A DNA stretch of 58,158 nucleotides from a virus (Duplodnaviria > Caudoviricetes). This document shows positions 24,045-47,578 of this stretch, piece by piece. Under the pieces are notes generated by a model that saw nothing but the letters and a program-made list of their open reading frames with translations, searched no databases and was not told where the DNA came from. Numbering within the stretch: the first letter of the stretch is position 1; every line of letters starts with the position of its first letter. The stretch is taken from the IMG/VR virus record IMGVR_UViG_3300011116_000399, positions 1 through 58,158 of that record, one strand, 5' to 3'. A program made the translations under genes and the position numbers.

Positions 24045-24074
24045 TTGACAGACTAAACTAGGGTTTAGTATCCT
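24045..24074 (+). promoter_or_regulatory. Replication-operon promoter with operator in the spacer
   Basis: TTGACA...TATCCT; CTAAAC-TAGG-GTTTAG palindrome. Confidence 0.75.
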
Positions 24075-24097
24075 CTCCCCAAACGAGAGGAGTCCAC

Positions 24098-24640
24098 ATG
24101 GACAACGCATTAGAAGTTACACCAATCGATGATTTTGAAATCATCGAAGAGCCAGCCCGTGAACCATTCAAAGTTGATGATGATTCCAAGGCAGATTGGG
24201 CAATGCGAAAACTTGCCTCAATTCGACGCAAACAAGCAGAGAACAAAGACATCTTTGACCGAGAAGTTAAAAGGGTCATGGAATGGCTTGAGAAGGTCAA
24301 TACAGCCCTTGAGAGAGACGCTGAGTGGTTTGAGTCCAACCTCCGCCCATACGCCCTTCAGGAGCGCTCTAAAGACCGTAAAAGCATAGTTCTGCCCCAT
24401 GGCACAATCAAAACTGTCGCAGGTCGGGTCAAGTTCGATATTGAGGATGAATCTAAGTTAATCGAGTGGGCTGAGAAGAACGCCCCTGAATTAGTCCGAG
24501 TTAAAAAAGAAGTTGATAAAAAAGCCCTAGGTGCTTTGAATCAATCTGAAGATAAGGTAATATCAACCCAAGGTGAAATTATTCCAGCAGTAAAAGTTAT
24601 ACCTGCTGAGACTTCAGTTTCATTCGTAATAGCAGAGTAG
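24098..24640 (+). CDS. gam: Mu Gam-like host-nuclease inhibitor
   Basis: F.VDDD..ADWA.RK, KSI.LPHG, E.DK.AL. Confidence 0.8.
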   Translation: MDNALEVTPIDDFEIIEEPAREPFKVDDDSKADWAMRKLASIRRKQAENKDIFDREVKRVMEWLEKVNTALERDAEWFESNLRPYALQERSKDRKSIVLPHGTIKTVAGRVKFDIEDESKLIEWAEKNAPELVRVKKEVDKKALGALNQSEDKVISTQGEIIPAVKVIPAETSVSFVIAE

Positions 24641-35127: not shown

Positions 35128-35174
35128 TTTGTTCTCCTCTCTAAGAACAAGTCCAGTATATCATAACTGGGGTT
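35125..35174 (-). promoter_or_regulatory. Early promoter/operator/SD-hairpin cassette
   Basis: AACCCCAGTT-ATGA-TATACT...TTGTTCT-TAGAGAGG-AGAACAA-AGTG. Confidence 0.75.
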
Positions 35175-35766: not shown

Positions 35767-35811
35767 TCTGTCCTCCTCTCAGGACAACACTAGTATAACA
35801 CAACGGGGGTT
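35764..35811 (-). promoter_or_regulatory. Early promoter/operator/SD-hairpin cassette
   Basis: AACCCCCGTT-GTGT-TATACT...TGTCCT-GAGAGG-AGGACA-GAATG. Confidence 0.75.
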
Positions 35812-40238: not shown

Positions 40239-40283
40239 TTTGTCTCCTCTCTAAGACAATCTGAGTATATCATAACTAGGGTT
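40236..40283 (-). promoter_or_regulatory. Early promoter/operator/SD-hairpin cassette
   Basis: AACCCTAGTT-ATGA-TATACT...TTGTCT-TAGAGAGG-AGACAA-AATG. Confidence 0.75.
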
Positions 40284-41127: not shown

Positions 41128-41180
41128 ACCGTCCTCCTCTCGGACAGTCCCAGTATACCAAACTGGGGTTAGTAATGCAA
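41125..41180 (-). promoter_or_regulatory. Early promoter/operator/SD-hairpin cassette
   Basis: TTGCAT-17 nt (AACCCCAGTT)-TATACT...ACTGTCC-GAGAGGA-GGACGGT-ATG. Confidence 0.8.
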
Positions 41181-41266: not shown

Positions 41267-41314
41267 AACCCCCGTTTGATATAATGGGTCTTAACTACGA
41301 GAGGAGTAGGTATG
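41267..41314 (+). promoter_or_regulatory. Divergent early promoter/operator cassette
   Basis: AACCCCCGTT-TGA-TATAAT...CTAC-GAGAGGA-GTAG-GTATG. Confidence 0.75.
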
Positions 41315-44508: not shown

Positions 44509-44610
44509 GGCAAGACTCCTAGAACGGGGTCATCTAGGACACGATTGAGCCTATTGTACCAACCGTCAAATTCATGCTAAACTGGGGTTGTAAATACGAG
44601 AGGAGTTCCA

Positions 44611-46170: not shown

Positions 46171-46334
46171 GGTTACTATCACGACTAACCCTAAAACAGC
46201 CTCTACGGGTCTCTGAAGGCTCATTAAGGGCTATCCGTAGGGCGCAACTAGAAAAGGCGCTCGCTGAGGAAGCCGATAAGCGTCGTGCGAGAAAAAAGGC
46301 TCGCATGTTCAGTTTGATTTCCAAACCCCAGTAG
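46167..46334 (+). CDS. Small basic protein (55 aa)
   Basis: ATGA coupling. Confidence 0.55.
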   Translation: MRLLSRLTLKQPLRVSEGSLRAIRRAQLEKALAEEADKRRARKKARMFSLISKPQ

Positions 46335-46369
46335 GATATACTTGGAATTGTCCGAGAGGAGGACACATG
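46314..46369 (+). promoter_or_regulatory. Early promoter/operator/SD-hairpin cassette
   Basis: TTGATT-17 nt (AACCCCAGTA)-TATACT...TGTCC-GAGAGGA-GGACA-CATG. Confidence 0.8.
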
Positions 46370-46780
46370 ACTCAAGTAGTTGAAGCCCCAGTTAAAAAAT
46401 TGGGCAAGCGTGAGTGCGCTCGAATTTACAAAGAGGCTTATGCCGCTGGCTTACAGGCTGGCAAAGAAGTCGGCGTTCCAAAGTTTGTAGTTGGTTCCCC
46501 AACTACTCCACTTGGTAACGATATTGACTTCAATAAAAAAACTTACATCCTTGAGGGTCTTTGCGGATTCGCATGGATAAACATTTCTCCAGCGAGAGGT
46601 GCCTTCGTTAATTATTTGAAGAGCATTGACGCTGGACACAAGGGCTATTACGGTGGCTACGAAATTTGGGTTCGAGAATTCGGACAAAGCGTAGACCGTA
46701 AGAGTGCTTTTGCTGGTGCCTTCGCCAAGGTTCTAAATAGTTACGGAATCAATGCGAGCGCTGGTAGCAGACTTGACTAA
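46367..46780 (+). CDS. Conserved phage protein (CGFAW...RLD family)
   Basis: G.CGFAW, QS..RK..A.AFA.VL...GI....SRLD. Confidence 0.8.
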   Translation: MTQVVEAPVKKLGKRECARIYKEAYAAGLQAGKEVGVPKFVVGSPTTPLGNDIDFNKKTYILEGLCGFAWINISPARGAFVNYLKSIDAGHKGYYGGYEIWVREFGQSVDRKSAFAGAFAKVLNSYGINASAGSRLD

Positions 46781-46796
46781 GTAACAAAACTGAATT

Positions 46797-46967
46797 CATC
46801 CCGTCAGTCGCTTCTTAGATTGGCGGGATGATTCTTATATCGTAAATCCTTTCTGCGATATAGGTTAGGTAGGGTATTCTTTACACGGGTACCCAAGTTC
46901 GGTGGGGTTGATGCCAGTCGTGCGTCCGTCCTCTCTCAAGCACGATGTAAGTGCGCCCCCACCGAGC
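46797..46967 (+). ncRNA. Candidate structured ncRNA with an anti-SD loop
   Basis: Successive hairpins whose G-U pairs work only on the + strand; apical loop contains UCCUCUC. Confidence 0.5.
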
Positions 46968-46979
46968 GCCCTAATATCC

Positions 46980-47122
46980 TTGACAGTCATTCATCTTGAT
47001 GATGTACCCTAATTGCAGGTCGCAAAACACCTACTTCTAAAAGTGAGGTCAGTCCGATACTGGCAACATAGAAGCGTTACAACCAGTAACGAATAAATGT
47101 TCACTCCTAACAATGGAGGAAT
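46980..47122 (+). promoter_or_regulatory. Promoter and structured leader of the transglycosylase gene
   Basis: TTGACA 46980; TACCCT about 47005; several short helices; CTCC/GGAG pairing over the SD. Confidence 0.45.
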
Positions 47123-47578
47123 ATGCGATTTTATGAAAACATTTTCAAACCTATTCCAAGTTTTATCTTCGTTCTTGGAATTATCATTATCAATCCGTTT
47201 CACATCCCGCCCGACCCAGTAGCCAAGGCTAATGATGTTCCAGTTATCAAAGCGATAACTATTGAACGAACCCCTGAAGCGGCTAAAGAGTTCGCTCAGA
47301 AACGCCTTGCTGATTACGGCTGGAAAAATCCTGTTGAGTGGGAGTGCCTCCTATCTCTTTGGACTAAAGAGTCAAATTGGCGTCCCGATGCCTACAATAA
47401 AAAAGCCGTGTATCAGGATGGCGAAAAACTTCACGCTGGCGGTATCCCACAGATACTCGGGCTTGACCCTGACTTAACAGTCGAGGAGCAAGTAACCCGT
47501 GGGCTTGTTTATATCGAACATCGCTATTCCAATCCCTGCTCGGCGTGGCGCTTTTGGGAAAAAAATTATTGGTACTAA
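47123..47578 (+). CDS. Lytic transglycosylase (SLT/lysozyme-like), membrane-anchored
   Basis: W.CL..LW.KES.W...A.N, A.GIPQ, Q...GL.YI..RY..PC.AW. Confidence 0.88.
   Translation: MRFYENIFKPIPSFIFVLGIIIINPFHIPPDPVAKANDVPVIKAITIERTPEAAKEFAQKRLADYGWKNPVEWECLLSLWTKESNWRPDAYNKKAVYQDGEKLHAGGIPQILGLDPDLTVEEQVTRGLVYIEHRYSNPCSAWRFWEKNYWY

Follow-up and report, generated by a model that had tools for sequence, protein, structure and literature searches.

A conserved plus-strand RNA hairpin with an anti-Shine-Dalgarno-like loop at an operon border of a tailed virus

At the border between two operons of a tailed virus (Duplodnaviria; Caudoviricetes) we found a 71-nt, three-part hairpin, termed H4 (46897..46967, plus strand), which is well supported as a new, real and conserved structured RNA family without a match in Rfam. 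Its 16-nt apical loop is complementary to the GAGAGGA ribosome-binding sites that precede many non-structural genes of the same genome. We document the structure, the strand, the conservation and the position of H4 together with this complementarity, and from these sequence features we infer pairing and repression: our tentative reading, to which we give a probability of about 0.4, is that of a base-pairing regulatory hairpin which would act from the 3' UTR of the upstream gene as an anti-Shine-Dalgarno (anti-SD) element.

Results

Genomic setting

The window, i.e. the whole stretch of DNA that was analysed, is an IMG/VR virus record of 58,158 bp with a completeness of about 96%. According to PHROG and Pfam matches, portal, head and tail genes occupy 49.5-58 kb and 1-23 kb, the region 24-31 kb holds genes for Gam, Erf, replication, methylase and ParB-like proteins, the large terminase follows at 31.9 kb, while small genes to which PHROG and Pfam assign no function fill 34-41 kb on the minus strand and 41.3-46.8 kb on the plus strand. 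Neither tRNA nor tmRNA genes were found in the window. A gap of 342 nt (46781-47122) separates the gene p137 upstream (46367..46780, plus strand) from p151 downstream (47123-47578), a 151-aa transglycosylase-like gene by PHROG/Pfam; next in order are a WhiB-like gene, SSB and the portal gene. Small early-like genes thus form the block before the gap, and the operon behind it leads into the structural genes, the label "early" being derived from gene content and promoter motifs.

The capsid protein shares 53-57% identity with capsids of Arthrobacter and Microbacterium phages and 85% and 63% with those of contigs binned in Actinomycetota MAGs. Based on these identities and the WhiB-like gene, the host is likely an actinobacterium, with no assignment beyond Actinomycetota. 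Metagenomes from freshwater, rivers and drinking water, produced by several studies, contain the stretch, as do four RNA libraries.

The 137-aa product of p137, which was defined by the list of open reading frames and by synteny and always lies directly 5' of the RNA element, belongs to phrog_22149 (unknown function); it matched no Pfam family and only unnamed viral clusters in the Atlas, and its AlphaFold model (pLDDT 73.6) gave no PDB fold match at E 0.001 or better. As a possible RNA-binding partner of H4, p137 thus yielded no lead. The protein is widespread in this phage group and has many invariant residues, e.g. in GFAW, SPARGAF and YYGG.

Structure and strand of H4

The initial annotation had placed hairpins and a long stem at 46797-46967 and had assigned them to the plus strand. 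Folding returned four stem-loops (H1 to H4) in just this region, of which H4 is the long stem of the annotation. Folding, covariation and the covariance model R1 agree on a hairpin of 11 + 3-4 + 7 bp: a strong, G+C-rich outer stem of 11 bp (GUUCGGUGGGG/CCCCACCGAGC) and an inner stem of 7 bp (GUCGUGC/GCACGAU) carry the apical loop GUCCGUCCUCUCUCAA (46924..46939, plus strand) with its anti-SD-like core. All 16 nt of this loop are unpaired in both the MFE and the centroid fold.

The gap 46781-47122 folds with -117.9 kcal/mol on the plus strand (z -5.35; 0 of 100 shuffles as good) versus -97.4 kcal/mol on the minus strand (z -1.71; 5 of 100). H4 alone behaves in the same way, with -34.5 kcal/mol (z -4.33; 0 of 200 shuffles) versus -27.0 kcal/mol (z -2.17; 6 of 200). 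In the alignment fitted to R1 (45 distinct rows) 95.5% of the cells form pairs compared with 32-47% for slid partners, and both sides have changed in 11 of the 22 H4 pairs; a model-fitted alignment leans towards the structure, and a MAFFT-based count agrees. The latter used alignment A2, which holds 48 of 50 distinct stretches (L093 was dropped as it has no H4 and L054 for a tandem duplication), and a hand-drawn three-helix structure: 92% of the cells pair versus 34-49% with slid partners, and ten pairs show compensatory changes. Furthermore, G-U pairs are frequent at four H4 positions (in 14, 17, 22 and 23 of the 45 rows). The opposite strand would have A-C mismatches in their place, so that plus-strand RNA, and neither DNA nor the minus strand, is on comparative grounds the form in which H4 functions. 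The strand chosen by the initial annotation thus held in the z scores as well as in the G-U pairs.

A peptide-coding reading, for which small open reading frames at 46902-47012 (plus) and 46865-46990 (minus) were considered, was rejected in view of indels that are not multiples of three, of the covarying stems and of a loop that is more conserved than the stems. An SD role of the loop complement on the minus strand was rejected too, no start codon lying within SD distance. Rfam 15 gave no match in the whole window at gathering thresholds; with E values up to 10, the region 46700-47200 yielded only two chance snoRNA rows with 12-20 bits versus cut-offs of 45-50.

The accompanying hairpins H1 to H3

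Upstream of H4, H1 (46796..46831, plus strand) is a 14-bp hairpin with a CU-rich loop in the CGCUUCUUAG region. By the terminator scan it is terminator-like in the window only, its T-rich tail not being conserved in alignment A1, and compensatory changes and a conserved loop were judged by eye in A1 without a count. H2 (46835..46863, plus strand) is a variable hairpin with CCUUUC in its loop, which according to folding and A1 is missing from some relatives. H3 (46872..46894, plus strand) has as its 3' arm the nearly invariant palindrome GGGUACCC; at the DNA level positions 46887-46894 form a perfect 8-bp palindrome, GGGTACCC, nearly invariant in most relatives. In L115 and L117 the GGGUACCC arms are swapped for a GCGC-type, G+C-rich hairpin in the same place. 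This replacement by a different hairpin suggests that structure rather than sequence matters, and H3, too, is a real hairpin. The TAnnnT-like hexamers TATTCT and TACCAT in the 5' arm of H3 offer a lead to a possible promoter.

Conservation across relatives

Relatives were collected by blastn of the gap, which gave 75 distinct homologous stretches with 69-98% identity, and by scanning viral contigs with the proteins p151 and p137 as queries (loci L002-L120). Alignment A1 comprises 65 stretches and the window (66 rows) and leaves out L006, L009, L020, L055, L062, L069, L088, L102, L116 and L119 as truncated or near-duplicate. R1 scores 89.6 bits at H4 in the window, where the next best match reaches 14.9 bits, and it gave 93 matches in 98 sources; the search with Infernal in related phages that the initial annotation had suggested thus recovers the element in related viral contigs, with no Rfam family. 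A 14-mer scan of viral contigs produced 80 loci, of which R1 confirms 49, the scan being partly noise with no R1 match in the other 31. H4 is flanked by homologues of p137 and p151 in 14 of 15 newly checked loci, the fifteenth being cut by the contig end, even though these homologues are sometimes only 37-60% identical.

The loop is the most constant part. Its 14-mer GUCCGUCCUCUCUC is kept in 37 of 44 distinct full-length versions of H4, its 9-mer core UCCUCUCUC in 43 of 44 and CCUCU in all 44, so that the conservation of the loop, on which the initial proposal turned, is clear. An unpaired loop kept to this extent indicates strong purifying selection.

Outside this group of contigs the searches were negative. 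The DNA of the gap region found no match among 50,697 phage records in either near or distant mode, a pattern of outer stem plus loop gave no match in 185,579 species genomes, and R1 reached E 0.14 at best in the four cultured phages with the nearest capsids, namely the Arthrobacter phages Ottawa, Laroye and Kovu and the Microbacterium phage ValentiniPuff.

Two loci deviate in their architecture. L054 (2130-2290) carries a tandem duplication of about 84 nt with a full H4 and a second, partial copy (45 bits with R1), both of which end in the terminator-like GCTCATTTTT. L093 (3440-3500) has a natural deletion in which the 3' arm of H3, H4 and the TTGACA/TACCYT promoter are missing, so that the 5' arm of H3 (GGTACCATT) now stands 11 nt before the conserved leader start AGGTTCGC. 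Unless L093 is an assembly artefact, H4 is dispensable in at least one lineage.

Promoter-like sites and position in the transcript

Consensus and regex scans together with a comparison of upstream regions located a putative promoter of p137, TTGATT-17-TATACT, at 46314..46342 (plus strand), preceded by the early-type motif AACCCCAGT. The motif AACCCYMGTT, which marks this family of p137-type promoters, occurs at 12 sites in the window versus 0.43 expected, e.g. at 35165-35174, 35802-35811, 40274-40283, 41161-41170 and 44580-44589 on the minus strand and at 41267-41276 on the plus strand, and is probably an early promoter or operator motif of the phage. In at least six cases it stands a few bases 5' of a TATACT-like -10 element and a short leader hairpin with GAGAGGA in its loop; some copies have the opposite orientation. 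Between the end of p137 and H4 (46781-46896) no sigma-70-type site was called and no early-type AACCCYMGTT..TATACT motif was found.

A putative promoter of the downstream operon, TTGACA-N19-TACCCT, follows H4 at 46980..47010 (plus strand). In the alignment, TTGACA-N19-TACCYT is present in 55 of 66 rows and one more row has TTGATT-N17 under a wider pattern, while most of the remaining ten keep an extended -10-like TGnTACCTT without a -35 element. The 19-nt spacer is unusually long and strictly kept. Since H4 lies upstream of the transcription start of the next operon, it forms part of the 3' UTR of the p137 transcript.

About 7 nt after this promoter begins the structured 5' leader of p151 (47017..47128, plus strand), the best-conserved block, which always accompanies H4 and is separate from it. 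RNAalifold assigns 23 pairs to it, 12 of them with compensatory changes, and the p151 start codon and SD both fall into helices with its 5' part. Two local hairpins covary (GUCAGU..ACUGAC and GCGUUAC..GUAACG), a long-range closure joins two segments of the 5' part, CGCA and CCU, to UGCG in the start codon region and to AGG in the SD, respectively, and a further helix covaries as well (CG in 21 rows versus UA in 19). The leader resembles a translational riboregulator or a riboswitch-like leader; it has no Rfam match.

The metatranscriptome contig X20 (173 nt) matches 46902-47074 with no differences, extending from H4 over the promoter as far as the leader, and X15 contigs of relatives likewise span the promoter. 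The RNA runs are contigs that show neither strand nor ends, and X20 fits read-through transcription or DNA in the library. Gaps in cover, differences in depth between bins and RNA runs of small share were excluded as evidence.

GAGAGGA sites and their complementarity to the loop

The initial annotation had noted that the loop complements GAGAGGA and that most early genes use this site. The complementarity stands and proved longer than described. The window contains GAGAGGA 20 times versus 6.96 +/- 2.95 expected, and none of 100 shuffles reached 20. At 17 of the 20 sites a start codon follows after 4-7 nt and opens a reading frame of 44 codons or more; these 17 are confined to the non-structural blocks. 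Of the other three sites, one is intragenic and two are complements, namely of the H4 loop and of a cis anti-SD at 24071. The sites cluster at 24-28 kb (plus), 34-41 kb (minus) and 41-48 kb (plus), whereas the structural genes, in a crude gene list, mostly have AGGAG-type sites. Six of these 17 are displayed in a hairpin loop closed by 4-7 bp, shortly downstream of an early-type promoter.

The H4 loop offers 7-11 nt of complementarity to the 17 start regions. Three leaders carry GAGAGGAGGAC (GAGAGGA plus GGAC) at a chance expectation of 0.01, and GAGAGGAGGAC pairs with the loop segment GUCC-G-UCCUCUC over 11 bp with one bulged G. The 5' leader of p137 itself forms the hairpin (U)GUCC-GAGAGGA-GGAC(A) (46349..46365, plus strand), in which folding puts the SD into a 7-nt loop with an unpaired probability of 1.00. 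This leader, GUCCGAGAGGAGGAC, is the predicted binding partner of the H4 RNA: among 91 crudely defined initiation regions it gave the strongest predicted duplex with the H4 loop, at about -20 to -21.0 kcal/mol. The duplex check on the leaders that the initial annotation had called for therefore singled out the mRNA in which H4 itself resides.

Mean duplex energies were -12.5 kcal/mol for the 40 non-structural regions versus -9.2 kcal/mol for the 51 others. Permuted loops of the same composition equalled the H4 loop in 6 of 300 trials for the non-structural set; over all 91 initiation regions the H4 loop was no better than permuted loops (55 of 300), and CU-rich loops in general pair with any SD, including that of p151. 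An inverted repeat at 24071-24091 (UCCUCUC-N7-GAGAGGA) forms a 7-bp hairpin in which the SD of the Mu Gam-like gene (24098-24640) is sequestered (unpaired probability of the SD 0.02), and its cis anti-SD heptamer has the same sequence as the core of the H4 loop. This cis hairpin indicates that such pairing is used in this genome.

Among relatives, 39 distinct p137 leaders with H4 downstream comprise 21 with GAGAGGAGGA, eight more with GAGAGG and ten with neither, start codons having been picked by a heuristic, and the three loci without H4 (L112, L113 and L118) have no GAGAGGA leaders. Counted over whole genomes and both strands, GAGAGGA versus a reversed-motif control amounts to 20/7, 14/3 and 13/8 in three H4-bearing relatives; the genome behind L112, which is without H4, has 4/2. 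L115 comes from a genome that bears H4 and has only 7/3; its loop has the standard core, and its nearby leaders use GAAAGGGG. In L093, from which H4 is lost, 3 of 12 crudely called leaders still contain GAGAGGA. Overall, three of four H4-bearing complete relatives and the window are rich in GAGAGGA and one H4-less genome lacks both, an association that rests on few, related lineages. As the H4 loop barely varies, covariation of loop and target cannot be shown, and a small table of cognate versus non-cognate loop-leader duplexes for variant loops, which includes stem bases, revealed no clear pattern.

Discussion

Several features favour the anti-SD reading of H4: its structure and strand, the selection on its loop, its 3' position, and the complementarity of the loop both to the SD hairpin of its own mRNA and to SDs of the same class. 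Of the four stem-loops in the 3' UTR of p137, a short unit transcribed from an early-type promoter, H4 would be the one that comes last and is most strongly conserved, ending just 5' of the promoter of the next operon. The 16-nt apical loop would serve as an anti-SD sequence for GAGAGGA(GGAC) initiation regions. Its first partner would be the leader hairpin of its own mRNA, which displays the SD in its loop and could be reached by a 5'-3' fold-back within the p137 mRNA. As this RNA, or a stable 3' fragment protected by the hairpin, accumulates, it could pair with other non-structural GAGAGGA mRNAs, and translation of genes of the GAGAGGA type would drop as infection proceeds. The mechanism put forward in the initial annotation thus stays a plausible candidate. 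The far-reaching form of this model, a private SD/anti-SD code of this phage clade in which one 3'-UTR loop titrates all promoter-proximal non-structural genes with GAGAGGA(GGAC), a site often shown in the loop of a 5' hairpin, by loop-loop pairing, strikes us as doubtful. If true, early translation would be shut down throughout the genome by RNA alone, at the border with the following operon.

The main rival, which we judge possible though on the unlikely side, is that H4 serves as a terminator or as a barrier to 3' exonucleases that stabilises the upstream mRNA, its loop being bound by a protein of the phage or of the host and the match to GAGAGGA a by-product of a loop rich in pyrimidines encountering ribosome-binding sites rich in purines. 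Like an intrinsic terminator, H4 is a G+C-rich hairpin with a strong 11-bp outer stem at the end of a transcription unit, here immediately 5' of a conserved promoter, and a T-rich tail follows it in 12 of 44 distinct versions. The loops of H1 to H3 are pyrimidine-rich as well, which suggests a general avoidance of SD-like sequence, and one H4-bearing genome (L115) hardly uses GAGAGGA. However, the tail is absent in the window, where H4 is followed by GCGCCCUAAUAUCC without a U tract, and in 32 of the 44 versions. The 16-nt loop (versus about 3-8 nt) and the 71-nt three-part stem are unlike simple intrinsic terminators, and the terminator scan of the window called H1 and did not call H4. Two of the three features that define intrinsic terminators are lacking in H4. 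Moreover, a terminator does not explain a loop invariant over 9-14 nt, the 11-nt match to three leaders far exceeds its chance expectation, and no binding protein is known, the adjacent p137 product offering neither a family nor a fold. The position between two operons would also suit a control of processing or read-through, as an RNase III-type site or as an antiterminator target that gates the SSB/structural operon. Intergenic hairpins of phage T7 are RNase III sites, H4 is likewise a long irregular hairpin with internal loops at an operon boundary, it always travels with the promoter and the structured leader, and the RNA-library contig bridges H4 and that leader. RNase III sites, on the other hand, usually need no invariant apical loop, PHROG and Pfam identified no N- or Q-like protein nearby, and read-through is not needed given that the downstream operon has its own well-conserved promoter, which makes this explanation improbable in our view.

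The proposal of the initial annotation that the element is a separate small RNA gained no support. The early-type promoter motif is lacking from 46781-46896 and no promoter of its own was found there, H4 falls into the 3' UTR of p137, and the contig from the RNA library crosses the next promoter. An independent small RNA directed at host mRNAs or, by imitating the 3' terminus of 16S rRNA, at the translational machinery would account for the high conservation of the loop relative to the flanking sequence, since its partner would not change along with the phage, and for the loop sequence CCUCUCUC, which we take to resemble the pyrimidine-rich anti-SD tail of 16S rRNA; with no homologue found by pattern in the species genomes, we nevertheless consider this quite improbable. 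Least probable by far is a conserved feature that acts as DNA, in the form of an operator or origin hairpin, or on the minus strand. The perfect, nearly invariant palindrome directly upstream and the SD-like GAGAGAGGAC read by the loop on the minus strand speak for it, but the frequent G-U pairs would be A-C mismatches there, the minus strand folds weakly and offers no start codon at SD distance, and the palindromic hairpin is replaced by a different one in L115 and L117.

H4 belongs to none of the known systems with which it was compared, differing from them in position and architecture. In phages P1 and P7, the c4 RNA (Rfam C4 family) precedes its target and is excised by RNase P. As outlined in PMC12197685, it shares a transcription unit with its target, and its loops pair around the ribosome-binding site and block translation. 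H4 resembles it as a phage RNA with a target in the same unit and complementarity between a loop and a ribosome-binding site, where the pairing of H4 is predicted. In contrast to c4, H4 lies in a 3' UTR, has a single long loop, faces about 17 possible initiation regions instead of one, matches no Rfam model and belongs to a phage of another host phylum. The 6C small RNA of Mycobacterium and Streptomyces pairs through C-rich loops with many mRNAs without a chaperone (PMC6486639) and is a precedent from the host phylum. With 6C, H4 shares this phylum and the combination, predicted for H4, of pyrimidine-rich loops with purine-rich mRNA segments; however, 6C is a chromosomal, free-standing small RNA with two C-rich loops, whereas H4 is phage-borne, part of a 3' UTR and equipped with one CU-alternating loop, and the Rfam scan gave no 6C match for H4.

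In the hok mRNA and in phage T7 gene 1.2, the 3' end folds back and pairs with the mRNA's own 5' initiation region, which is thereby silenced. The best predicted partner of the H4 loop is likewise the leader of the same mRNA. There is no sequence relation, however; with H4 both the 3' side and the 5' site are hairpin loops, possibly forming a kissing complex, and its target site recurs on other mRNAs. The start-associated sequences of cluster K mycobacteriophages are an extended, phage-specific SD motif of a subset of genes, for which the trans factor is not known, and we know of no complementary RNA proposed for them. In the present virus the motif is a different one (GAGAGGA), and the same genome provides a conserved complementary loop. 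A literature search at the level of abstracts returned no described phage RNA with an anti-SD loop and nothing specific on H4.

Should the pairing model be true, a phage of lytic type would time its expression with one RNA loop that reads a phage-specific ribosome-binding site. A loop acting on a ribosome-binding site is documented for single genes, as for c4 of P1, and not for a whole class of genes, and chaperone-free loop pairing as in the actinobacterial 6C RNA would then be used by phages of these bacteria, too. Should the pairing model fail, H4 would still be a useful marker and a well-defined RNA-protein or terminator puzzle.
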